Shown here: one piece after another, positions 6,692 through 34,391 of the stretch
Layout of the letters: every line of letters starts with the position of its first letter
How positions within the stretch are numbered: position 1 is the stretch's first letter
The notes under the pieces: generated by a model
Database searches by the model: none
Seen by the model: only the letters and a program-made list of their open reading frames with translations
What the model was told of the DNA's origin: nothing
Position numbers and translations under genes: made by a program
IMG/VR virus record: IMGVR_UViG_3300032327_001202
Location: 1-64,000 of that record
Length of the DNA: 64,000 nt
Direction: 5' to 3' (one strand)
Origin: a virus
Taxonomy: Duplodnaviria > Caudoviricetes

Positions 6692-7429
6692 ATGCAAGTA
6701 TTAAAATTTAAGCAGTATAAAAACTCTATTGATCTAGCAACAGATTTTTTAGATTTGCTTGGATCTAAAATTAATGAAGATAACGTTGTGAATGATATCT
6801 TAAATAAAGTAACAAATGATTTAAAATTAAATTTTACTCTTATCACTTCTTTTGGTACAGGTATAAGTTTTATATATCCTATTGTTGATAATTTAATCAA
6901 AAATTCAAAACTAAATATAGATATGTCTATTGAAAATATAGTTTTATTAACTATAACTTCTATAAGTATATTCTATCTTGAATCAAGAAAAGGAAAAGTG
7001 AATGAAAAACTCGAAAAAGAAGTTAAAAATTTACTTGAAGAATTAAAACTTAGAGGTATAGGAAATGGTATTGTTAAAAAATTAACAGAATGTCTAAAAG
7101 CTCTAAATAACATCTTCATAATCCTACTTAAGAACACATATAAAACCATCGAATCTTTTGTTGATATGTTTAGTTATACTTCAATTTTAGTGCCTATTTT
7201 GAGTGCTATAACAACACTAGTATCTAAAAATAATTATAACTTAGATACTTTTAGTAATAGTTTTATTTCTTTAGGTATAGGTATTACTACATTAACTGCT
7301 AAACACGGTTTAAATTGGTTAATACAGAAGTTAAAAAATAAAATCTATTTAAATAACGATATTAATAAAAATATCGCTACTCAAATAGATGATACTCCTA
7401 ATTCTAATTCTATGATAAACGAATCATAG
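6692..7429 (+). CDS. Hypothetical membrane protein
   Basis: 245 aa with several hydrophobic segments; TTTAATATATA motif upstream. Confidence 0.55.
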   Translation: MQVLKFKQYKNSIDLATDFLDLLGSKINEDNVVNDILNKVTNDLKLNFTLITSFGTGISFIYPIVDNLIKNSKLNIDMSIENIVLLTITSISIFYLESRKGKVNEKLEKEVKNLLEELKLRGIGNGIVKKLTECLKALNNIFIILLKNTYKTIESFVDMFSYTSILVPILSAITTLVSKNNYNLDTFSNSFISLGIGITTLTAKHGLNWLIQKLKNKIYLNNDINKNIATQIDDTPNSNSMINES

Positions 7430-8689
7430 TTTAACATTTACTCTTTTAATAGATTCTTGAAACCAAATAGGTAAATATTCTGAACTATATTTGATAATAT
7501 CTCCAAAAGATCCATCTATAATTATAGTATCAGCAAAGTCCGTTTTTGAACGAATACTTCTACCACACATTTGTTGTAAAATAGCACAGGTTTTCCATGC
7601 ATACCATTCAGGATTATTCTTCTGTCTTAGTTTATTTTTTTGTGAAGCTAAACTAGGATAAGGTACTTTTGCTATAATCTGAAATCTGCTTTTATCACCA
7701 TCAAAAGATACCCCTGTTGATATACTTGGTGATATTAAAACAGTTGGATCATCTGAATCAAAATGCTTTTTTAACATTTCTGTTTTATTAGCAGAATCAT
7801 GAAACAATAATCTTTTGTTTTTTATATCATTTTTAATCCAAGTTGATAATTCAAAAGAATTAGTATGTATAATTCCTTTACTATCTTTATACTTATTAAG
7901 TATTTTGTCTAAATAACTTTTGTAATTGATAAAAGTTTCTTCTTTTTTAGCATATGACATCTTACCTAATGGCATATAAAATATTTGTCTATTTTCAATA
8001 GGAAATGGAGAAGGTATAGAATAATATACACATTTTTTTAAATCCAATCCATTCAATTCTGAAAAGATTTTCTTACTTAAAATAGTACCTGACATTAATA
8101 TAACAGTATCATAATTATCCCATACATATTTATTCAAATACTTATATGACCATATTGGTTCTAATGATAATTCATATTGTTTTGTTTTATCATTATAACT
8201 TTTTTCCAAAACCCAATTCTCTCTATCATCATTATACTCCTTTAAGAAAACATCTATTTTAGTTTCATATTGTTTTAAATCTGCCATAACTTGTATAGAT
8301 TTAACATCATCATTAACATAATCTAAAATTTTAGATAACTTTAAATCTCTTTTAGTATTTTTAGCAGTTGATGGTGTACTAATCATATTATTAGTAGTTT
8401 GTGCTATTGTTAGTATAAGCTCTCCTTTAAAATATTCTAAGAATTGAATATAATCATCAATAGTAGCAACATATTTTAACTTACTTATTATTTCATCTTC
8501 ATTATCAAATCTTAATTTTTTAATTACGGTTTCTGTAATTTTTATTGAAATAAAATCTGACATAACTTCATCTAATAAATGGCAATTACTAACATTTAAA
8601 TTATTAGCAAAATAATTATGATTATCTTTAACTCTTAGATTATAAACATCTTCTTTATAATCTATTTTTTTTATTTTTTTTATTTTCAT
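7424..8689 (-). CDS. DinG/YoaA/XPD-like SF2 helicase, C-terminal part, preceded by a 35-aa C-intein
   Basis: MKIKKIKKIDYKEDVYNLRVKDNHNYFANNLNVSN|CHLLDE, then ILMSGTI, GIIHTNSF, STGVSF, IIAKVPYP, QQMCGRSIRSKTD and IIIDGSF motifs. Confidence 0.9.
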   Translation of the reverse strand: MKIKKIKKIDYKEDVYNLRVKDNHNYFANNLNVSNCHLLDEVMSDFISIKITETVIKKLRFDNEDEIISKLKYVATIDDYIQFLEYFKGELILTIAQTTNNMISTPSTAKNTKRDLKLSKILDYVNDDVKSIQVMADLKQYETKIDVFLKEYNDDRENWVLEKSYNDKTKQYELSLEPIWSYKYLNKYVWDNYDTVILMSGTILSKKIFSELNGLDLKKCVYYSIPSPFPIENRQIFYMPLGKMSYAKKEETFINYKSYLDKILNKYKDSKGIIHTNSFELSTWIKNDIKNKRLLFHDSANKTEMLKKHFDSDDPTVLISPSISTGVSFDGDKSRFQIIAKVPYPSLASQKNKLRQKNNPEWYAWKTCAILQQMCGRSIRSKTDFADTIIIDGSFGDIIKYSSEYLPIWFQESIKRVNVKL

Positions 8690-9830
8690 TTTTAAATTGT
8701 TTTAAATTTCTTATTAATTTTTCAGTACAAGATTGTTTTAATACTAATTTTTCATCATAATTATTTTTAAACCATTCATCAGTTATAATTACATAATTAT
8801 AACTATTTTCTTTTGCCCATTTTTCCGCATAAATAATTTTTACTTTTACTTTATCATCATCTAAATTAGATTTAGGTTTTATTTCATAAAAAGTTTTTTG
8901 AGAATGATCAACAAAATCAATTATATAGTTTTTATATTCATTATTATAAACATATGGAATAACTAATTTTTCATATAATAAATCAGGATTAAATAATTGA
9001 AAATATGCTTCCCAACACGATCTTAACTTTAAATTTATAATTTTGTTATTTCTTATAAAAGATATATCACATCTTGATTTTGCCCAACTATTACTTATTG
9101 GTGGTACAAACAACCCATCTTTTATTTTTTTCTTCATAGAAATAGATTGTTTTTTATAAGATTTTTTACGAGTTTCTTCAGTCATTTTATGACTAGTATT
9201 ATTATCACCTTTTTGTATATTAGAAAAATACAAACTAGCACATTTTTTACTACAAAACGGATATATATCTTTTGTATTTCTTCTTGGTAATAAACCAATT
9301 GATTTTTTATTATTATTACATTCTTTTATTCCACATTTTTTATCCCAATGTGATGTTAAATAGTTTTTAACATTCTCTAAAGTAATTTTGGGTAATTCTA
9401 AAATATAATCGTTCTCAATTAAAATTTTATCTAATTTTAGATTTAATCTTTCTTCACCTTTCATATTTAATATCTGTCTTTTTATTAGAAAAGATGATAA
9501 AAAATCATATATTTTATCTTTTTCTTCGTTTGTCATATATTATATATTAATAATATCATCATCTTCTGATAAATCTTCTACTTTTTTCCATTCTCCAGTT
9601 TTTAATCTAACTTTGTGATTCCCTGTTATTTTTAACATAACACCATTTTCCATTTCTAACTCATACATCTGTTGATTTTTACTAAGATTTTTATATACAT
9701 ATTCTACTTCTTTATTTTCATATTCATTAGTTTCTTCATTTAAAGTAAGTACATATTCACCTTCTTTTATATCTTTAATCTTTTTATCTTCCCCTGTACT
9801 CATTTTAATATAACTATCAGGATGTAAACA
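8585..9830 (-). mobile_element. Canonically split intein in the helicase DExH motif with nested endonuclease gene
   Basis: IntN 9543-9830 (Cys1 TGT at 9828-9830); IntC 8585-8689 ends Ser-Asn; +1 residue is Cys. Splicing would restore DE-C-H. Confidence 0.88.
8655..9536 (-). CDS. Free-standing endonuclease (TnsA-N/gp4-like PD-(D/E)xK) nested between the split helicase halves
   Basis: LRSCWEAYF...YIIDF...FYEIKPK...WAKEN..YVIITD, plus an N-terminal Cys motif (CGIKEC...FCSKKC). Confidence 0.75.
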   Translation of the reverse strand: MTNEEKDKIYDFLSSFLIKRQILNMKGEERLNLKLDKILIENDYILELPKITLENVKNYLTSHWDKKCGIKECNNNKKSIGLLPRRNTKDIYPFCSKKCASLYFSNIQKGDNNTSHKMTEETRKKSYKKQSISMKKKIKDGLFVPPISNSWAKSRCDISFIRNNKIINLKLRSCWEAYFQLFNPDLLYEKLVIPYVYNNEYKNYIIDFVDHSQKTFYEIKPKSNLDDDKVKVKIIYAEKWAKENSYNYVIITDEWFKNNYDEKLVLKQSCTEKLIRNLKQFKNENKKNKKNRL

Positions 9831-10331
9831 TTCATCCACAATTAATAATCTAGAATCTCTATTCTCTAATAACTTAGGAGTATATAAAGAATGTATTAAA
9901 TACAAATGAAAATTAGTTAATGAAACTCTACCACCAATATATGCTTCTTTAGCAGAATCATACGGACAAAAATCACAAACAGTTTTATTTAACTTATTAA
10001 ACTCTTTACCTTGAGCACAAGAACAACTATAACTTGAACAATTATAATTATCTTTCCCTTTTAAGTTGGTAATTGATTCGTATTCTTCGTCATATTGATC
10101 TTGAAGAATTTTACCAGGTGTAATTATATCTACTTTTGAATCAGGACTTACTATATTTAAAAACCATTGACTTATCATAAGTGCTAAATGACTTTTACCT
10201 GTCCCTACAGGTAAGTTCATTAGATAAAATTTATTATCAGGTTTATTAGCATGAATTTTCTTAACAAATTCTAATGCTTCATCTTGTTCTTTTCTTGGTG
10301 TGTATCTATTTAAATCTTCTCTTAATCCCAT
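9540..10331 (-). CDS. DinG/YoaA/XPD-like helicase, N-terminal part, ending in a 96-aa N-intein
   Basis: Q motif (PRKEQ), Walker A (PVGTGKS), Cys cluster, Walker B LLIVDE|CLHPDSYI..., intein block B ITGNHKV; ORF ends DDDIINI. Confidence 0.9.
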   Translation of the reverse strand: MGLREDLNRYTPRKEQDEALEFVKKIHANKPDNKFYLMNLPVGTGKSHLALMISQWFLNIVSPDSKVDIITPGKILQDQYDEEYESITNLKGKDNYNCSSYSCSCAQGKEFNKLNKTVCDFCPYDSAKEAYIGGRVSLTNFHLYLIHSLYTPKLLENRDSRLLIVDECLHPDSYIKMSTGEDKKIKDIKEGEYVLTLNEETNEYENKEVEYVYKNLSKNQQMYELEMENGVMLKITGNHKVRLKTGEWKKVEDLSEDDDIINI

Positions 10332-10346
10332 TATTTATTTTTATTT

Positions 10347-11342
10347 TTAATCTTCTAACTTTATTTTATCCCATAAAAACAAACAATCATCTTTTTTTAT
10401 TGATATAATTTCTTTATCTTCAATAAAAAAACAACTTTTTTTATTTCTCTTATGAAGAATTAAATCTTTTCCATATATATTTATACTATCTCCTATTTTA
10501 TAAAAAAATGAGTTTCTTAATACTTTATCTTTTTCTTCCTTAAACTTAAATATAAATTTAGAAGGTATTTTAACTAAATTTCTACATCTTCTTCCAATTG
10601 AAGATTCAGTCATATTTAATTCAACTGAGGCTTCTTTAATAGAAGAAAACTCTTTAATAAAATTTCCTTCTAAATCATATTGAATAATAGATTTTTTTTG
10701 AAATTTAGACATTTTTAATTTTAATTTATTATTATCAATAACTTTATTTCTATTAATTTTTATTTTTTCAATTGTTTCATCAGAATGCTTTTTACCAAAC
10801 ATAGGATGATTAATACCTATAACTCTATCAGATTGTTCTTGTTTAACTTTTTCTGTATGATGTTTTCCAAAAAAAGGATTTTTTTCCCCTAAGTTTATTT
10901 TACTAAAATGCTGTTTTTGCTCTTCAGATATTGGATTATTTTCATAAAATTTTTTTCTTGATAAAATTGCTTTTAATTTAGAATCTCTAGTTATTTGAAA
11001 ATCATAACCACCATTCCCACCTTCACATAGATTAGTTAAAGGTCCTGTATTTATGTTAATTCGACCAATTTTTGATATAACTTTTTTTTCTAATTCATAA
11101 GCTTTACTTTCCTCTTCTATATCATTATATATAATGATAGTTTTTATTTCTATATTATTTTCGTTTAATTTTTTTATTTTATTTGATTTAAAATCAAATG
11201 ATTTCGTTTTTTTAGACTGAGTGTACCTTCTACCACTGCCTTTTCCTACATAAAAAGGTTCGAATTCGAATTCTAAATCATCATAGATAAATTGTCCTGA
11301 TTTAGAAGAATCTAAATAAACATAAATGTAATATTTTTTCAT
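10347..11342 (-). CDS. GIY-YIG-type homing endonuclease with NUMOD3 and NUMOD1 repeats
   Basis: YIYVYLD...PFYVGKG..RY N-terminus; GEKNPFFGKHH and NHPMFGKKHS repeats; IIQYDLEGNFIKEFSSIKEAS. Confidence 0.8.
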   Translation of the reverse strand: MKKYYIYVYLDSSKSGQFIYDDLEFEFEPFYVGKGSGRRYTQSKKTKSFDFKSNKIKKLNENNIEIKTIIIYNDIEEESKAYELEKKVISKIGRININTGPLTNLCEGGNGGYDFQITRDSKLKAILSRKKFYENNPISEEQKQHFSKINLGEKNPFFGKHHTEKVKQEQSDRVIGINHPMFGKKHSDETIEKIKINRNKVIDNNKLKLKMSKFQKKSIIQYDLEGNFIKEFSSIKEASVELNMTESSIGRRCRNLVKIPSKFIFKFKEEKDKVLRNSFFYKIGDSINIYGKDLILHKRNKKSCFFIEDKEIISIKKDDCLFLWDKIKLED

Positions 11343-11393: not shown

Positions 11394-12932
11394 CTAATCT
11401 TCTAATTCTTGTTCTAATTGTTTAATTTCATCCAAAATTTGCTTTAATTCCTCTTTTTTCTTCATCATTATGTTTTTATTCTTTTTCCTATCACTAAATA
11501 CATCTATTAACATATTTATAGTAGGTGAAACTACTTTTTTAAAAACACAACCATTATTGCAAATAACTACATTATCAAAATCAATTTCTGTACCATTAGT
11601 ACAGAAATTTTTATTATTTGGGTTTTGAATTCCTACAAAATTTTCAGGTGAAATGTAGAATTGCATCTGGGTTCTGGGATAGAGGCTTGAAAAGTCATAA
11701 CAAACACACCACTTGTTCATTCCAACAATTGGGTCTTTAACAAATCCACCTTCTATTGTTCCTTCGTCACTACCTTCTTTTTCATCATCTTTAAATATGA
11801 TAGCGTTCATTTGATCTTTAAACCTATGTCTTAAAACTCCTTCTGTAATTGCTAATGTACCTAAATTATTTTTTGCTTTAGATAATACATCAGTAATTTT
11901 TATTCTTGATAAAGAACTTATCGCATAAATAATAGAGATATAGTTTTTGGCATCATGTATTTTTTGAACTAACACGGAATCCACCGCATTATAATACATA
12001 AAAGTTTCAAAATCATCTTCATATAATTTTTGTAAAGAACCATTATATTTAATTTTCTCTAATCCAATTAATTTATTAGATACAAATTCTAATTTAGAGG
12101 ATTCTTTAATCTTAATTGTAGTATCACAGATTTCATATAACTGCATATAATCAAAAATCATCTTATGTGCAGGCATTTCATAATCTTTCAACCAAATTTT
12201 ATTCATTTTTTTGGTTGGAGATGCTACCGCAGGATCAATAGTTATTTCTTTACCATTAATTTTCTTTTTTAATTTTCTTGACCTATTAACTAAATAAATC
12301 CAGTCATAGTTAACAAAGTTCCATCCTGTCATAACAGACATTTTTGGAACCATCGTATTAAAAAAGTTATACATCATATCAAATTCTGAATCGTATTTAA
12401 CATACTTAAACTTATATGTTGTTCCTAATTTTTTAAAGTATTTATTAGTATTATCTAATATACGTGTTTGTGTTTCACTTGATAAATCTTTTAATCCTAA
12501 AAGGATTATTTTATCTTCATAAACAATAGATATTGAAAGAACTTTTGTAGCTGCGCCTTCTTTAACTACATTTCCTGCTTCATCTTTAATATCAGCGGCT
12601 TCAGGAAATCCATCTACTATTTCAGTTTCAATATCTATAAAATAGATATTGGGTAAATTAAATTCAAAGATTTCTTCTCTTTCATTTTCGGGAAGAGTGT
12701 CTAAAAATTCATAAATAGAATATCTATTTGGGTATGGTGAATCTACTAATTTAATAGATTTACCATCCCATGATTTATATTTTTGATCTTTTTCAGAATC
12801 TTCATCATCACAAACTACGTATTTTTTGGGATTTGGCCATTTATAGTATTTTAGTTTAATATTTCCTGACTTATCGACATAGGAAACTACTAAATTTTTT
12901 GTACTTGGTAGGTATTGAGTATCAACTAGCAT
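11394..12932 (-). CDS. Family-B DNA polymerase, N-terminal part (3'-5' exonuclease through motif A)
   Basis: FIDIET (ExoI), GWNFVNYDW (ExoII), YNAVDS (ExoIII), GGFV..P, YDFSSLYP. Ends in a coiled coil before motifs B and C. Confidence 0.9.
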   Translation of the reverse strand: MLVDTQYLPSTKNLVVSYVDKSGNIKLKYYKWPNPKKYVVCDDEDSEKDQKYKSWDGKSIKLVDSPYPNRYSIYEFLDTLPENEREEIFEFNLPNIYFIDIETEIVDGFPEAADIKDEAGNVVKEGAATKVLSISIVYEDKIILLGLKDLSSETQTRILDNTNKYFKKLGTTYKFKYVKYDSEFDMMYNFFNTMVPKMSVMTGWNFVNYDWIYLVNRSRKLKKKINGKEITIDPAVASPTKKMNKIWLKDYEMPAHKMIFDYMQLYEICDTTIKIKESSKLEFVSNKLIGLEKIKYNGSLQKLYEDDFETFMYYNAVDSVLVQKIHDAKNYISIIYAISSLSRIKITDVLSKAKNNLGTLAITEGVLRHRFKDQMNAIIFKDDEKEGSDEGTIEGGFVKDPIVGMNKWCVCYDFSSLYPRTQMQFYISPENFVGIQNPNNKNFCTNGTEIDFDNVVICNNGCVFKKVVSPTINMLIDVFSDRKKNKNIMMKKKEELKQILDEIKQLEQELED

Positions 12933-21069: not shown

Positions 21070-22338
21070 ATGATAATCGAAAAAAATTTAGTGGAAATAA
21101 TCCAAAATATTGATAGTCCTTTAAGTAAAACTTTTCTAAAATTAGAAAAGTTAAATCTTACTTCTATAGTACAACTATCAAATAAAGATTGGCATTTCCA
21201 AGTAGTAAACGGTAAGAAAAAAGAAACCGTAAAAATGTTTAAATTTATCAATACTTATTTCCCAAATAAGTTTGAAAAAGATGAAGTTATTAGTTTTTGT
21301 GAAAAAATTATAACTAATTCTAAACCTAAACAAGTTACTACTAAAATAGAACCAAGACCATTTAAATATGAGCCTCTTAATGTAAGAGATACATTTATTT
21401 CATTAGTTACTGAAACTTATCCTCATGGATTTGAAGATGAAGTTTTAGCTTATCTTCCACAAGATCTAGAAATAGATGATTTTGGTAATTACTATAAAGT
21501 AATTGGTGATTCTGAAACAGTTTTTACGAGTCATTTAGATACTGCTTTAAGAGAAAAATCTGATATTAATTTATATTCATTCTTTGTTAAAGAACAAGAG
21601 TTTATTAAAACAGATGAAACAACTATATTAGGAGCTGATGATAAAGCCGGTGTTACTATCATGTTATATATGATGGCTAATAATGTTCCTGGTTTATACT
21701 ATTTCTTCTTAGGTGAAGAAAGAGGGGGTATTGGATCTAAAAAGGTTGCTAATGATTTTATAGACAATCCACTTTTAAAAGGTAAAAAAAGAATGGTATC
21801 TTTTGATAGAAAGAATTATTATTCTATCATAACATCACAATTAGGAGAAGCTTGTTGCTCAAATGAGTTTGCAGATGGATTATGTAATGAATTAAATAAA
21901 AATGGTTTGCATATGAAACCTGATGATACAGGTATCTTTACAGACTCTGCTAATTTTGTGGATTATATTCCTGAATGTACTAATATTTCTATTGGATATT
22001 TCAACGAGCACACTCATAAAGAGATTCAAAATATTTCTTATTTAGAAATATTGGCTAAGTGTTTAGTTGATGTAGATTGGGAAAACTTACCAACTGTTAG
22101 AAAGGCAGGTATTAGTGAACAATCTATAATTAAACATGGTGACAAAATTAAGAAGTTAAGAAAGTTAGGTATTAAAAATACGCTTCATATTAAGGAGTTA
22201 AAGGGTAATTTATATACTATCTTAGAGGTAGATAATAAAAATCCTATGGGAATATATGAAGATTTATCTCTTTTAAGAGAAACTTTAGGAAGTATAGATT
22301 TAAGATTTTACAATTCAAATATTTTAATAAAATTATAA
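21070..22338 (+). CDS. M28-like zinc peptidase, paralog of 15530-16639, with N-terminal extension
   Basis: ETYPHGFE, FTSHLD, LGADDKAG, FFLGEERG, SFDRK, TDSA, ISIGYFNEH. Confidence 0.8.
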   Translation: MIIEKNLVEIIQNIDSPLSKTFLKLEKLNLTSIVQLSNKDWHFQVVNGKKKETVKMFKFINTYFPNKFEKDEVISFCEKIITNSKPKQVTTKIEPRPFKYEPLNVRDTFISLVTETYPHGFEDEVLAYLPQDLEIDDFGNYYKVIGDSETVFTSHLDTALREKSDINLYSFFVKEQEFIKTDETTILGADDKAGVTIMLYMMANNVPGLYYFFLGEERGGIGSKKVANDFIDNPLLKGKKRMVSFDRKNYYSIITSQLGEACCSNEFADGLCNELNKNGLHMKPDDTGIFTDSANFVDYIPECTNISIGYFNEHTHKEIQNISYLEILAKCLVDVDWENLPTVRKAGISEQSIIKHGDKIKKLRKLGIKNTLHIKELKGNLYTILEVDNKNPMGIYEDLSLLRETLGSIDLRFYNSNILIKL

Positions 22339-22595
22339 TGCAAGAGACAGTAGATAAAATGGTAGATTACTTAAATGAAAATTTTTCAGAGGAGTTCTAC
22401 GTAGATTTTGAAGAAGATGAAAAAAATAAAGTAGTCTTTATTCAGTTTTTGATGGATAAAGTTATTAGCATTGATAATGCTATAGATTTTTTTAGCAGAA
22501 TCAATGATAGTAAAACTTTGTGTAAAAAACAAGAGTTTGAGTTATGGAAAACAAAGGAAGAAGAACCTATTATTCAAATAAGTTATATTATGTAA
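22338..22595 (+). CDS. Hypothetical protein
   Basis: 85-aa ORF coupled to the upstream stop codon. Confidence 0.55.
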   Translation: MQETVDKMVDYLNENFSEEFYVDFEEDEKNKVVFIQFLMDKVISIDNAIDFFSRINDSKTLCKKQEFELWKTKEEEPIIQISYIM

Positions 22596-22597
22596 TT

Positions 22598-22813
22598 ATG
22601 AGTACAATTAATGTAAAAATACAAACAAATAGAATTATTGGCGGTCTTAGAGATTGTATTAAATTATTTTTACAAGAAACTAAAGAAAAAGTATTAACTT
22701 TAGAAGTTTTAAAAAAATATAATTTTGAAGAAAAAGATTTATATGATATGAATCTAACTAAATCAAAAATAAGAGATTTTAAAATTAATAAAATATTAAA
22801 ATTATGCCAGTAG
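22598..22813 (+). CDS. Mini-protein of the RDxxIxxIL family; N-terminal segment unidentified
   Basis: MSTINVKIQTNRIIGGLRDCIK...LKKYNFEEKDLYDMNLTKSKIRDFKINKILK. Confidence 0.65.
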   Translation: MSTINVKIQTNRIIGGLRDCIKLFLQETKEKVLTLEVLKKYNFEEKDLYDMNLTKSKIRDFKINKILKLCQ

Positions 22814-23043
22814 TTTCATTAGATTTCGCAAGTTTATATCCTAGACCAATGGGTGATTTTTCTATGGGAGATGATTTTGATAAATCTACTAAGTATATAT
22901 TAGATAGAAATAAAGATCATGATTATGTAGATCTTTTATTACTTGAAAAGTATGGGTTGGTAACAAGTAGTTTATTTGATTTTCCTTTTGTTCAAACAAA
23001 GGTAAGAGATTATGAGATAAATAAAATATTAGATAGTATATGA
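22804..23043 (+). CDS. Mini-protein of the RDxxIxxIL family carrying a PolB motif-A-like segment
   Basis: Starts MPVVSLDFASLYPR; ends EKYGLVTSSLFDFPFVQTKVRDYEINKILDSI. Confidence 0.7.
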   Translation: MPVVSLDFASLYPRPMGDFSMGDDFDKSTKYILDRNKDHDYVDLLLLEKYGLVTSSLFDFPFVQTKVRDYEINKILDSI

Positions 23044-23294
23044 GTGATATAATCAGACAAGAACTTAAAAAAGTAATAAATAGTTTTTATGGAAGAAATC
23101 CCGATATAGAAACTGATTTTACTAAATCTATAAAGTTTTTATTATCTAAATTGGATGTTAAGTTTTTAACATACGAGTTTGTAGAAAAGATAAAAGATAA
23201 ATATGATATAGTATATACGGATTTGTCTGATTTTTCATTAGTTCAGATAAAGGTAAGGGATTATGAAATAAATAAAATCTTTAAAAGTATCTAA
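23040..23294 (+). CDS. Mini-protein of the RDxxIxxIL family carrying a PolB motif-B-like segment
   Basis: RQELKKVINSFYG near the N-terminus; ends DKYDIVYTDLSDFSLVQIKVRDYEINKIFKSI. Confidence 0.7.
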   Translation: MSDIIRQELKKVINSFYGRNPDIETDFTKSIKFLLSKLDVKFLTYEFVEKIKDKYDIVYTDLSDFSLVQIKVRDYEINKIFKSI

Positions 23295-23324: not shown

Positions 23325-23618
23325 ATGAAAAGTAAAAGTGATTTAAAGATAAAATATGGTGATAACATCATAGACGAAATAGAAAATAAATTAGCAAAAG
23401 AAATATCTGATAGTATAAACAAGGATATACTTAATAGTTTTAAGAAACCAAGTAAAATTTATCTACTTTCTTTAGTTGAAAATATTAATAATAAAGAAGG
23501 TGAGTTATTTATACTAATGGAAAAATATGGTATTATAGAAAATGATTTATATAGCCTTGAAATTGTTAAATCAAAAATAAGAGAATATAATATAGATTTA
23601 ATCTTAAAAAATAATTAA
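23325..23618 (+). CDS. Mini-protein of the RDxxIxxIL family carrying a major-capsid-like helix
   Basis: DLKIKYGDNIIDEIENKLAKEISDSINKDIL versus capsid DIKANTGMDIVQKMESILVNELSQTISKQII; ends KIREYNIDLILK. Confidence 0.7.
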   Translation: MKSKSDLKIKYGDNIIDEIENKLAKEISDSINKDILNSFKKPSKIYLLSLVENINNKEGELFILMEKYGIIENDLYSLEIVKSKIREYNIDLILKNN

Positions 23619-23646: not shown

Positions 23647-23934
23647 ATGGAAGAAAAAAATATAAATTATAAATCTTATATAGAGGAACAAATAAGTAAA
23701 AGTATTTCTTATTCTGATTATATATGTGATGAGTTAGATAAAACTATAGATTATGCTGATTACTTAAGTGATAAACTTGAAAGTGAAGTATTTTTAGTAA
23801 AATTACACACTGATATGAATTTATCAGATATAATAGAAATGTATGATTTATCAGAAAAAGATCTTCATAAATTGAGTATAGTTAAGTTAAAAGTAAGAGA
23901 TTATAAAATAAATTTATTACTAAAACAAGATTAA
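23647..23934 (+). CDS. Mini-protein of the RDxxIxxIL family carrying two scaffold-repeat-like units
   Basis: SYIEEQISKSISYSDYICDELDKTIDYADYLSDKL versus scaffold EYIAENLDKNISYSEYIAENLDRNISYAEYLAENL; ends KVRDYKINLLLK. Confidence 0.7.
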   Translation: MEEKNINYKSYIEEQISKSISYSDYICDELDKTIDYADYLSDKLESEVFLVKLHTDMNLSDIIEMYDLSEKDLHKLSIVKLKVRDYKINLLLKQD

Positions 23935-23963
23935 AAAATATAATATATACATTACAAATACAT

Positions 23964-24322
23964 GGGGATGAAATGATTTAGATTCATGGAATTAATGGTA
24001 GAGATGCAAACATCGGATAATCCTAACCCGATTAATAAATTGGATTAAAGTCTAAACGACAAAACAAATACAGTAGCAAGCCGTGAAGAATTAGTAGCCG
24101 CTCTACAAAACAACATCTTAAAGGTAAACGAAGTAGCTTTTGCTTAATTGACAAAAACAAAAAGGTTTCCAAATAGTTAAAAATCTATTCAAAAATTTTC
24201 GGATTTGTTAGGGGTTCGTTAAAAACTAAATTAGTTTGTTATTTTATAAAAAAGTAACTACGTTTGTAAATGAGTTTCTATGATTAACCAGAGAAGACCC
24301 GAATTCGCCTTCGGCATCTCCA
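23964..24322 (+). ncRNA. ssrA: tmRNA (transfer-messenger RNA)
   Basis: 5' GGGGATG pairs with 3' CATCTCC-A (G3.U70 alanine identity). T-arm CCGAA-TTCGCC-TTCGG. Tag frame 24058-24147 follows a TAAAC-G resume context and ends ...NEVAFA*. About 360 nt; CCA not encoded. Confidence 0.88.
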
Positions 24323-24327
24323 CTAAT

Positions 24328-24353
24328 AAATACCCCTTGATTGGGGTATTTTT
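24328..24353 (+). terminator. Intrinsic terminator after ssrA
   Basis: AAATACCCC-TTGATT-GGGGTATTTTT. Confidence 0.8.
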
Positions 24354-25116: not shown

Positions 25117-25293
25117 ATGAACAAAGATAAAATAGATTTATATAATTTTTTAGTAGATAACCCTTACTTTTCTAAGGAATATGTTATGGGAAAGATATTT
25201 AATTTTTCTTTTTCTGATATACAATATATCAATAATTTAGAACTAATGGAAAAAAGAAATAAAAAAATAGATGATTTATTAAATGAAGATTAG
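25117..25293 (+). CDS. 58-aa mini-protein carrying a portal C-terminal-like segment plus RNKKIDDLL
   Basis: Not in the ORF track. Manual translation: MNKDKIDLYNFLVDNPYFSKEYVMGKIFNFSFSDIQYINNLELMEKRNKKIDDLLNED*. Confidence 0.65.
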   Translation: MNKDKIDLYNFLVDNPYFSKEYVMGKIFNFSFSDIQYINNLELMEKRNKKIDDLLNED

Positions 25294-25444
25294 TATTGAT
25301 GAAATAATAACTTATGATATAGTAGCATCTCCAGCACTTGGAAGTGCTAAACTAGTATATGATGAAGAGCTTAAACGAAAGAAAATATTAGAGGATATGG
25401 AGAGGAGAAATAAGATTTTAGATGAGTTATTAAAAGAGGATTAA
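25283..25444 (+). CDS. 53-aa mini-protein carrying a prohead-protease motif plus RNKILDELL
   Basis: Not in the ORF track. Manual translation: MKISIDEIITYDIVASPALGSAKLVYDEELKRKKILEDMERRNKILDELLKED*. Confidence 0.7.
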   Translation: MKISIDEIITYDIVASPALGSAKLVYDEELKRKKILEDMERRNKILDELLKED

Positions 25445-27790: not shown

Positions 27791-28288
27791 TTATTTAGTC
27801 CTCTTTTTTTTACCTCTTTTATTTATTGGAGGTGTATAATTTGTTGATGTGGATTGGGTAGATGGCGTAGTGTAAGCATAATCAAAATAAAATAAATTAG
27901 GGCTGGAACCTGTTTTATATAATTCATGTTCTTCTTCTTTAAATTCCTCAAATTCTTTGTTTTCTAAAATAGAATCTAATTTTCTATCACGATTAATGGT
28001 AGCAACTTCTCGTTTAATTCTTTCTTTTTCCTCCTCTGAATTACCAAAACCTTTCATAGGGTTAACAGTAACTAAATCTATCCCTATTGTTTGAGCGGCT
28101 ATTTTTTTAGCAATTGGTAATAAACTTGGAAAAGATTCATTTGACTGTGTCCCTACTAATGTAGTATCCATATTTATTTCATTTTTTAAATGAAGATTAG
28201 CATATTCGGTCATCCAGTTATTTACTACAGATTGTGTAGATGATACATGATTCAAATCCCATTTATCTATTTTTATATTTGGTTTCAT
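27791..28288 (-). CDS. Short paralog of the major capsid N-terminal region with an RDRKLDSIL motif
   Basis: NWMTEYANLHLKNE and SLLPIAKKIAAQTIGIDLVTVNP versus capsid SWMAEYAEYHAINE and NLLPVAMKIAAQTIGLDLVAVKP. Confidence 0.75.
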   Translation of the reverse strand: MKPNIKIDKWDLNHVSSTQSVVNNWMTEYANLHLKNEINMDTTLVGTQSNESFPSLLPIAKKIAAQTIGIDLVTVNPMKGFGNSEEEKERIKREVATINRDRKLDSILENKEFEEFKEEEHELYKTGSSPNLFYFDYAYTTPSTQSTSTNYTPPINKRGKKKRTK

Positions 28289-28291
28289 ATT

Positions 28292-29395
28292 TTATATTAT
28301 TTTTTCTTCTAAAATTATTTCTATATTTTGTTCATAAGAAATTTTTAATAATTCTTTTTTATTTTCCAAAACCCAATTATCTTTTAATTGGTCATTTCTT
28401 TTTACAACCTCAAATTGCTCTTCACCACCAAAAAATTCTCTTGGCTCATAATGTTGAATACCATTAAACTCTATAAATAACCCCTTTTTAGGTAAATAAA
28501 AATCAAATCTATATGTAGAATTACCTATTTTTTGTTTATATTCTTTAATGTATTCTATACCTTTTATATCTAACCAATTCTTTATTTGACGTTCTCCTTT
28601 TGATGAAGAACAATTAGGACAACCACATTTATGATGTATAATATAATTAGGTTTAGCACTCCAAATATAATCACATACTTTACATTTATGTTTTAAATAA
28701 AAAAGAGACCCTATATATTTTTCACCATCTACTAATTCTATATCATTTGGAAGAAGAGATAAATATTTTGTATGAGAAAATTTTCTACCAGAACAAGATG
28801 AACACCCTAATACTATATTAGCTATATTTTTAGGCGTAGTGTTAAATTTCTCACCACATTTTAAACATTCAAAATCATGATTTTCTCTAAAATTAGTGTA
28901 ATTTCCTATTAATTTTATATTCCTTTCTATTAATAATTCATTAAATTTATTAATATAGTTATATGATTTTTTGCTTAATAAATTTTTATCCTTTTTACAT
29001 TCACAAATATATTTTGTGATTTGTTTAGGTGTTTTATTTATTATTTCATTACATATTTTACATTCAAAATTTATATACGTATTAGTGTTAATATAATTAT
29101 CTACTCTAATAAAATCTAAATCTTTTATTCTTAAATCAAATTCTTCATTTGTTATTTTTCTACCTAATGAAGAAAAACTATCGTTTGTTTCTTTTTTACA
29201 TTCACATAATGTTCGATTATATAATTTAGGCTTTTTCATACTTTTTTTACCACATAACTTACATTCAAATTCTATTGGTGTTTCTGCATTAATATAATTA
29301 CCGATTCTTATATAATCAGAATCTTTAATTTTTAAATCAAAATCATTATTAGTAAATGCTTTTGGTCCTGACTTTTCGTTCTTTTTTATATACAT
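28292..29395 (-). CDS. Homing-endonuclease-like protein: Zn-ribbon repeats plus C-terminal Vsr-like PD-(D/E)xK domain
   Basis: Repeated F.CxxC units; SKGERQI...RFDFYLP...IEFNGIQHY...LLKISY. Confidence 0.75.
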   Translation of the reverse strand: MYIKKNEKSGPKAFTNNDFDLKIKDSDYIRIGNYINAETPIEFECKLCGKKSMKKPKLYNRTLCECKKETNDSFSSLGRKITNEEFDLRIKDLDFIRVDNYINTNTYINFECKICNEIINKTPKQITKYICECKKDKNLLSKKSYNYINKFNELLIERNIKLIGNYTNFRENHDFECLKCGEKFNTTPKNIANIVLGCSSCSGRKFSHTKYLSLLPNDIELVDGEKYIGSLFYLKHKCKVCDYIWSAKPNYIIHHKCGCPNCSSSKGERQIKNWLDIKGIEYIKEYKQKIGNSTYRFDFYLPKKGLFIEFNGIQHYEPREFFGGEEQFEVVKRNDQLKDNWVLENKKELLKISYEQNIEIILEEKII

Positions 29396-33658: not shown

Positions 33659-34063
33659 ATGTATAAAATTAATTTTGGTGATGAGAAAGTTTTTTTAAAT
33701 TATTTAAAAGGTTTTGAAAATAAGTACCATAAAAGACAAAAAGTATTAAATGAGATTTTAGAAATTAATGATAAAGATGATGAAGCATTAAGCTACTGGG
33801 ATTTTACTGATAATAGTATAATATATGGTCAATTTTTTGATAAAAGATATGATAAAGATACATCTTTAAGTAATGTTTCACATTATGTTAAAAACATAGA
33901 AAAAATAAATGGGGAATATTTCGCAGAAATAAAAATATTAACTACTTATTGGGGTATAGCATTATTAGATTTAATTAATGCTGGAATAAAATTTCATTTA
34001 GAATGTGTCTATCATACTTATGAAAATAAAAAAATAATTAGACTAGATATAAATGATTATTAG
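33659..34063 (+). CDS. Truncated, probably inactive prohead-protease paralog
   Basis: IYGQFFDKRYDKDTSLSNVSH...EIKILTTYWG versus VYGEFDHPDVFDTSLSRASH...QIKLLNTYWG. Lacks the HP His and the SSR Ser; contains RQKVLNEIL. Confidence 0.65.
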   Translation: MYKINFGDEKVFLNYLKGFENKYHKRQKVLNEILEINDKDDEALSYWDFTDNSIIYGQFFDKRYDKDTSLSNVSHYVKNIEKINGEYFAEIKILTTYWGIALLDLINAGIKFHLECVYHTYENKKIIRLDINDY

Positions 34064-34391
34064 CAGAGAAATAGAAATAAAAGTAAATAACACAAATATA
34101 GGTTATTTACATAATTTAGGTTATGAGGTTAATAGAGGAGAATTATTATCAATTCCAATTGAATTACTTAGTCCTGGTAGTCATTACAAAATAAGTTGTA
34201 AATGTGATAAGTGTGGAATTATTAAAGATATTTTATTTAAAAATTATATTAAATATGGAAATAAATGGGGAGAATATTTTTGTAGAAAATGTAGTGAAGA
34301 TAAAAGAAAAAAATCTTTACAATTAAGTCATGGAGTAGATTACCCTATTCAAAATAAAGAAATACGAAATAAAATAAAGTTTAAAAACTAA
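34053..34391 (+). CDS. Small Zn-ribbon protein, likely a homing-endonuclease N-terminal fragment
   Basis: KISCKCDKCG...YFCRKC...HGVDYPIQ; no nuclease domain follows. Confidence 0.5.
   Translation: MIISREIEIKVNNTNIGYLHNLGYEVNRGELLSIPIELLSPGSHYKISCKCDKCGIIKDILFKNYIKYGNKWGEYFCRKCSEDKRKKSLQLSHGVDYPIQNKEIRNKIKFKN

Follow-up and report, generated by a model that had tools for sequence, protein, structure and literature searches.

Two adjacent small open reading frames (ORFs) of an uncultured giant bacterial virus, each opening with a copied catalytic motif of family B DNA polymerases (PolB), are intact genes and belong to a lineage-specific family of small proteins of 54-140 aa ("minis") composed of a disordered, exchangeable N-terminal part and a helical C-terminal domain. 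The first of them, mini 2, carries motif A, and the second, mini 3, carries motif B. The same conserved and selected design, in which a copied invariant segment is coupled to a shared tail, is found for polymerase motifs as well as for head proteins. Deriving their putative function from this design alone, we see an even chance that the minis are tagged mimic peptides, i.e., baits or competitors, and not enzymes.

The window, which is the whole stretch of 64,000 nucleotides analysed here, has a G+C content of 24.8% and is contained in an 82.8-kb viral record with an estimated completeness of 15%. The N-terminal PolB half encoded in the window is 68-70% identical to those of the uncultured phages LR745206 (635 kb) and LR756502 (642 kb), which are members of the group of megaphages of more than 630 kb treated in PMC9723777, and a locus syntenic to the window is found on the 633-kb metagenomic scaffold L024. 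The syntenic arrays of four genomes were compared, namely those of the window, L023, L024 and L026. TAA, TAG and TGA each function as stops in the window's record; hence, the standard code is valid for this phage. Joining of the minis by read-through or an alternative code was considered and discarded, given that the minis lie in three different frames and that all three stops are in use.

Mini 2 starts with M-P-V-V-S-L-DFASLYPR, and the motif A that the initial annotation had proposed for this ORF is recognisable by comparison with DFSSLYPR of the resident polymerase. For the next ORF, which overlaps the first by ATGA, a family B motif B had been proposed; it is present as KKVINSFYG within R-Q-E-L-KKVINSFYG (residues 6-18 of mini 3) and constitutes the single match to K...NS.YG in a six-frame translation of the window. 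A degenerate DNA pattern for motif A has two sites only in the window (0.07 expected), one in mini 2 and the other in the resident PolB gene, and second-order Markov simulations of the window yielded, per 64 kb, 0.013 matches to motif A and 0.057 to motif B. Considering these low rates, the presence of motif A and motif B at the N-termini of neighbouring paralogues is not due to chance.

Coordinates of the minis, their parts and related features (positions in the window unless LR745206 is named)
Feature	Position	Strand	Description
Mini 1	22598-22813	+	71 aa from ATG at 22598; family member, N-terminal part not assigned, tail RDFKINKIL
Mini 2	22804-23043	+	79 aa; PolB motif A peptide and C-terminal domain
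Motif A copy D-F-A-S-L-Y-P	22822-22842	+	Residues 7-13 of mini 2
C-terminal domain of mini 2	22906-23040	+	Three helices, pLDDT 84-93
Tail RDYEINKIL of mini 2	23005-23031	+	3 residues from the end
Mini 3	23040-23294	+	84 aa; canonical PolB motif B peptide and C-terminal domain
Motif B copy K-K-V-I-N-S-F-Y-G	23067-23093	+	Residues 10-18 of mini 3
C-terminal domain of mini 3	23157-23291	+	Last codons from a neighbouring cassette, either lost in the window or gained in L023
Tail RDYEINKIF of mini 3	23256-23282	+	3 residues from the end
Mini 4	23325-23618	+	97 aa; copy of conserved gp23-type capsid helix and C-terminal domain
Mini 5	23647-23934	+	95 aa; two to three units of the scaffold's 14-residue repeat and C-terminal domain
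58-aa mini	25117-25293	+	Portal C-terminal (crown) segment and short tail RNKKIDDLL; PHROG portal E 0.01
53-aa mini	25283-25444	+	Head-protease segment and short tail RNKILDELL
165-aa ORF	27791-28288	-	Copies capsid residues 34-115 (E 2e-10), then internal tag-like motif
HNH endonuclease gene	28292-29395	-	Between capsid gene and 165-aa capsid-copy ORF
134-aa ORF	33659-34063	+	Copies head-protease N-terminal region (scaffold-protease residues 65-122); tag-like motif near own N-terminus
Resident PolB N-terminal half	11394-12932	-	Exonuclease, motif A (11676-11696), first fingers helix; ends before motif B
LR745206 motif A mini	83154-83393		79 aa; 17-residue motif A stretch, 11/17 identical to own polymerase
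LR745206 motif B mini	near 265.9 kb		About 50 aa; canonical motif B at start
LR745206 Clp genes (two ClpP paralogues, 700-aa Clp-type unfoldase)	123568-124089, 75197-75721, 424469-424990		

The five ORFs between 22598 and 23934, which had been described as tandem minis, all match the family profile (A2) with E-values from 5.5e-32 to 5.9e-26 (mini 2, 1.5e-30; mini 3, 5.5e-32), and a search of the 82.8-kb record with this profile returned no match beyond them. The C-terminal domain of the family comprises ~40 residues, is helical, and ends in R-D-x-x-I-N-x-I-L; it lies at the extreme C-terminus and is marked by conserved Y, L, K, R and an I..IL ending, and mini 1 of L026 is cut to 33 aa and lacks the domain. 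Upon comparison of the domain profile with 1.84 billion representative proteins, 69 clusters were obtained, all of which are 31-140 aa in size and contain the domain at or near the C-terminal end, except for P0024 (326 aa, repetitive). On the N-terminal side, the classes comprise motif A (P0004, P0023, P0042), motif B (P0006), a gp23-type capsid helix (four family members match Pfam Gp23, best E-value 1.8e-6), a scaffold 14-residue repeat, collagen-like or tail-fibre repeats, and P-L-P-H-Y. Most family members contain an N-terminal part without a recognised parent; mimicry may, thus, cover only a subset of the family. Cassettes of the P-L-P-H-Y class are located at L023:3700-3921 and L024:10238-10453 and are absent from the window.

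In the AlphaFold2 model of mini 2 calculated with the family alignment, the C-terminal domain is made up of helices 40-50, 54-58 and 60-78, and the N-terminal half, with a pLDDT of about 50, is modelled as disordered. The domain could not be assigned with Pfam, PHROGs, the PDB sequence profile, ESM Atlas, Foldseek or VIA-align, Foldseek returning no match below an E-value of 4, and the best Z-score in the fold comparison was 3.0 (J-domain and HLH chains). It is our guess that the domain might be of the SAP/HeH type or a scaffold-type coat-binding hairpin.

The evolution of the array can be read from L023, which is about 96% identical to the window and possesses six cassettes versus five. The gain/loss breakpoints of the extra cassette lie inside the constant tail-coding stretch, and, consequently, the last codons of the window's mini 3 derive from a neighbouring cassette; in mini 5 of L023, the 5' part is replaced between identical flanks. 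The initial annotation had postulated a constant 3' cassette with exchanged 5' parts, which this comparison makes directly visible, and it had described the last 60 nt of minis 2 and 3 as nearly identical, which was overstated, as 47 of 60 nt agree, with the likeness concentrated in a shared 31-nt core (29/31 identical). Turnover of the array is unequal recombination between the constant 3' parts, by which cassettes are gained, lost and re-headed.

On either side of the array, two features deserve mention. Upstream, a metallopeptidase-like gene (PHROG 4191) and an 85-aa ORF (21070-22595, +) precede the array on the same strand in four of four syntenic genomes, and the minis may be co-transcribed with the peptidase. 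Downstream, the non-coding stretch 23940-24340 is almost identical between the window and L023, exceeding its coding flanks in this respect; ARAGORN and Rfam searches of this stretch gave no match, and it could be a structured RNA.

Orthologues of mini 2 in L024 and L026 show 48% identity overall, with the motif A residues D, F, S, L and Y being invariant. The initial annotation had allowed for the N-terminal segments falling within unrelated small-protein families that do not conserve the motif residues, and D-F-x-S-L-Y proved to be unchanged throughout the orthologous minis. The motif A codons differ synonymously among these orthologues and from the resident polymerase gene, to which mini 2 is identical at 14 of 20 nt of the motif. 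An invariant peptide combined with synonymous codon differences implies that the motif is kept by selection and not by recent gene conversion, and in the four sequences, the motif seems to be constrained more tightly than the linker. In sequence, the motif A mini is similar to the polymerase of its own lineage, down to the unusual R after SLYP.

Minis with polymerase motifs also occur in LR745206 and in LR756502, the latter containing a 49-aa motif A ORF; they are devoid of the 40-residue domain and end in the basic tail R-K-x-K-I-x-x-I-F. The capsid, scaffold and portal copies of LR745206 share this ending, and its protease copy terminates in RKQKINKIL. Motif B minis were found in the window, in L023, in one further cluster and, in unrelated-looking form, in LR745206; mini 3 is missing from the syntenic arrays of L024 and L026.

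The sister minis copy proteins of the phage head. Mini 4 matches Pfam Gp23 (E 0.003) and the PHROG major head protein (0.0026). The local alignment of mini 5 with the scaffold scores 130 (null maximum 81; z 11.4), and at the DNA level, the identity to the scaffold gene is about 80% over about 100 nt. Outside the array, the 58-aa portal mini, which is kept in L024, and the 53-aa protease mini (score 60 versus a null of 39.7 +/- 4.4, z about 4; 31/39 nt identity) carry a shorter version of the tail. The 165-aa and 134-aa ORFs are larger copies of capsid and head-protease regions, respectively, and the capsid region copied by the former would, by position, correspond to the Gol segment of T4. In L024 and L026, the place behind the capsid gene is occupied by ORFs of 117 and 146 aa, respectively, and the endonuclease is absent there. 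In an unbiased BLAST comparison of small versus large proteins of LR745206, six copies of the capsid protein, one of the scaffold, two of the protease and one of the portal protein were retrieved along with the motif A copy. Two neighbouring capsid-fragment minis of LR745206 overlap on the parent, which identifies them as paralogues and dismisses them as tiles of a cut gene. Two further similarities, one between mini 4 and ORF 81577-82788 and the other between ORF 34053-34391 and the helicase, were set aside as low-complexity or spurious. A co-variation test of minis and parents encountered identical parental segments in three of three genomes compared.

The tail is not confined to the minis. 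The tag of the clade has the consensus R-[DE]-x-K-[IL]-[DN]-x-[IL]-L and was counted as R-[DE..]-x-x-[ILV]-[DN..]-x-[ILV]-[LIF] within 8 residues of the stop, a pattern that is contained in both mini 2 and mini 3. In LR745206, 116 of 948 called genes are tagged versus 1.6 expected at gene ends (33 internal occurrences), among them 102 of the 494 genes of up to 150 aa; in the window's own record, the tag is present on 8 of 88 genes versus 0.22 expected. Codon usage at the conserved tag positions of LR745206 equals the genome average, indicating that the constraint acts on the peptide. A signal at the DNA level, be it a promoter or an element serving the following gene, was excluded on the grounds of genome-wide synonymous usage and of variable positions that are whole codons. 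As a lead to a reader of the tag, the phage Clp proteins come into consideration, since genes for two or three ClpP paralogues and for a Clp-type unfoldase of 700 aa are present in both LR745206 and LR756502. Of this unfoldase, 21 residues (15/21 identical) are copied in LR745206 by a 99-aa ORF (296085-296384).

In all relatives seen, the PolB of the clade is split between the fingers helices, the N-halves measuring about 508 aa and the C-halves about 475 aa. Motif B reads KLVLNGSYG, with Gly for the canonical Ser (NGSYG), in 117 of 120 C-half representatives (P0193-P0312; e.g., L008:442-1866), clade C-halves having been used for this comparison, as the window phage's own C-half lies outside the 82.8-kb record; the clade C-halves keep their own motif C. 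The minis, unlike these, keep the canonical NS.YG, and their motif B is not copied from the present clade polymerase. Each mini contains one motif, and motif C is found in neither mini 2 nor mini 3. When the mini 2 subfamily was compared with the PolB N-half by hhalign, 12 columns were aligned (E 4e-4); nothing was aligned between mini 3 and the clade C-halves, and Pfam PolB (PF00136 / PF03104) did not match mini 2 or mini 3 at E-values up to 0.1. Likewise, hhalign lent no support to a homology between the first fingers helix and the linker of mini 2 (I-L-D-R-N-K). Past Y-G, mini 3 diverges into the family linker and the C-terminal domain; with 84 aa and no run through motif C and thumb (about 470 aa), it was rejected as a second subunit of the gp43B type. 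A catalytic role, deemed unlikely from the outset, is indeed not to be expected from 12-13 matching residues when the resident halves carry their own motifs, and we infer that the minis do not polymerise DNA.

If the minis are tagged mimic peptides, the copied peptide would stand in for a constrained, invariant stretch of an essential protein of the phage before the binders of that stretch, which might be a host defence sensor or inhibitor, a factor of a rival phage, or partner proteins of the phage itself, and the shared tail would dock the mini on one common reader. The uniform architecture of the family, the helical domain and low-pLDDT N-terminal part of the AlphaFold model, the canonical motif B that sets the minis apart from the present polymerase, the retention of motif A in orthologues, the recurrence of motif minis in LR745206 and LR756502, the extension of the same design over other core proteins, the excess of the tag, the turnover of cassettes and the Clp genes of the relatives argue for this reading; the majority of N-terminal parts lacking a recognised parent and the narrow distribution of the motif B mini, which is dispensable in L024 and L026, argue against it. 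In folded polymerases, motifs A and B of PolB lie in the interior, around the dNTP pocket. This makes them an odd surface for a sensor to read and also counts against mimicry. Further elaborated, the minis would form a tagged library imitating the least mutable segments of polymerase, capsid, scaffold, protease and portal: host defence or rival-phage proteins that recognise those segments would bind the baits instead, and the common tag would hand bait and captive to a phage reader, e.g., the phage's own Clp unfoldase and ClpP. The polymerase would have left the canonical motif B (now NGSYG), which the bait would retain. We hold this elaborate scheme to be unlikely. The difference between NS.YG of the minis and NGSYG of the clade speaks mildly against exact self-imitation and fits an arms race, although it could also stem from ancestral retention. 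A special case of mimicry, to which we assign a limited though real probability, has the phage itself as the target, with the minis acting as microProtein-type regulators of its own machines. In the polymerase, the orphan fingers helix of the N-half would be packed against by the motif B helix, and the motif A strand would take a place next to the motif C hairpin of the C-half. In the head, the scaffold repeats would enter the coiled coil of the scaffold, and the crown helix would enter the ring of the portal. In this way the minis would cap, chaperone or time the split polymerase and prohead assembly. In agreement with such regulation, the split between the fingers helices leaves an unpaired element exposed on each polymerase half, the scaffold-repeat, capsid and portal copies are interface-rich segments, and the motif A mini resembles its own lineage's polymerase even in the R after SLYP. 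However, the real partner is not imitated exactly in motif B (NS.YG versus NGSYG), close relatives sharing the same split polymerase are without the motif B mini, and at least six different capsid fragments are scattered in LR745206, which goes beyond the apparent need of assembly capping.

The alternatives to mimicry attribute the motifs to the way the family evolves, to mobile elements, or to the polymerase itself. A fast-turning accessory family could pick up patches by illegitimate recombination, leaving the motifs without a role and noticed only when they come from famous motifs; this would account for the gain, loss and 5' replacement of cassettes between near-identical genomes, for the many N-terminal parts without a recognisable parent, and for a scaffold copy with about 80% DNA identity to its parent. 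We consider such by-products improbable, because motif A is invariant at 48% overall identity, with synonymous changes and no recent conversion at the DNA level (14/20 nt), because the same segments of the same parents recur in distant relatives at other loci and in other architectures, and because the unbiased self-comparison gives core head proteins, and not random genes, as parents. Far less probable is an origin as extein or exon pieces left behind by decayed inteins or homing endonucleases, although these elements prefer motifs A and B and are numerous in the window, which has GIY-YIG and HNH genes and an intein-like helicase insertion. Neither an endonuclease nor an intein remnant is present in or beside the array in the four syntenic genomes, and Pfam and PHROG searches of the minis gave no endonuclease or Hint match; the array consists of intact, conserved and translationally coupled ORFs, in which the fragment is followed in frame by a conserved protein domain, and the relatives lack endonucleases at the same places. 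Finally, the succession of motif A and motif B together with the already split polymerase might suggest that the minis are working parts of a polymerase in more than two pieces, supplying motifs A and B in trans. With motif A in the N-half, motifs B and C in the clade C-halves, 12-13 matching residues in N-terminal parts that are modelled as disordered, and the motif B mini absent in relatives, the probability of this is next to nil.

Mobile elements are encountered at other sites of the window. Directly after the PolB N-half, a GIY-YIG/NUMOD homing-endonuclease gene is located at 10347-11342 (-), which is absent from this site in LR745206. The neighbouring Rad3/XPD-like helicase (7424-10331, -) contains an intein-like insertion after the D-E-x-H box and is read as three ORFs (9540-10331, 8655-9536 and 7424-8689); the orthologue in LR745206 is one intact protein of 555 aa.

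New for phage biology are the catalytic PolB motifs under selection in non-enzymes of 50-84 residues, the proteome-wide C-terminal tag on about one gene in eight, and a clade polymerase in which the canonical Ser of motif B is replaced. If the minis are baits, they would represent a generic modular device of counter-defence or competition in the largest known phages and a natural catalogue, in which each peptide marks a segment of a core protein that is recognised by something in the cell, including the active-site motifs of the polymerase.

A keyword search of the literature retrieved neither such minis nor the tag as features described for phages, with the proviso that a description elsewhere may have escaped it. 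Closest among the published analogues found are the fusion proteins of Bodo saltans virus (BsV), for which a decoy function towards host factors, possibly coupled to degradation, was proposed in 2018 (PMC5871332). Both systems have tandemly amplified accessory genes in which an N-terminal fragment of an essential protein is joined to a constant part, which in BsV is a protein-binding module. However, BsV infects eukaryotes, and its proteins have a large ankyrin module and a link to ubiquitin, whereas the minis belong to a bacterial virus, their copied pieces are only 12-45 residues long and centred on invariant motifs, a helical domain of 40 residues with a proteome-wide C-terminal tag serves as the constant part, and any link to degradation would run via phage Clp proteins.

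Eukaryotic microProteins (e.g., the Id helix-loop-helix proteins) are small, related to part of a larger protein, and thought to compete for its partners. At the sequence level, minis 2 and 3 and their sister minis likewise imitate part of a larger protein, as expected of a microProtein or decoy mimic. In contrast to the minis, which keep a short linear motif, microProteins keep a whole folded interaction domain; Id HLH chains are among the weak fold matches of the C-terminal domain, with non-significant Z-scores of 2.3-2.6. Concerning the polymerase, Petrov and Karam reportedly described a split T4-type family B polymerase of Aeromonas phages with the subunits gp43A and gp43B. The clade polymerase is equally split between motifs A and B, and mini 3 begins, like gp43B, just upstream of motif B; unlike gp43B (about 475 aa), mini 3 is of 84 aa, belongs to another family, lacks motif C, palm and thumb, and carries a motif B that is not that of the clade.

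The Gol peptide of T4 gp23, which is sensed by the Lit protease, is an example of a capsid protein being read by host defence at its most conserved stretch (PMC3014915). The window comparably encodes a separate small protein that copies the conserved first quarter of the capsid protein; Gol, however, is part of the full capsid protein, whereas the minis are separate, tagged proteins. We know of no sensor of PolB motifs. Peptide address tags, such as the N-terminal capsid-targeting sequence of T4, which is cleaved off, and the C-terminal degrons and adaptor tails of AAA+ proteases, resemble the clade tag in that one short peptide is common to many unrelated small proteins. Unlike the T4 sequence, the clade tag is a C-terminal amphipathic helix, and it is carried by about 12% of genes.
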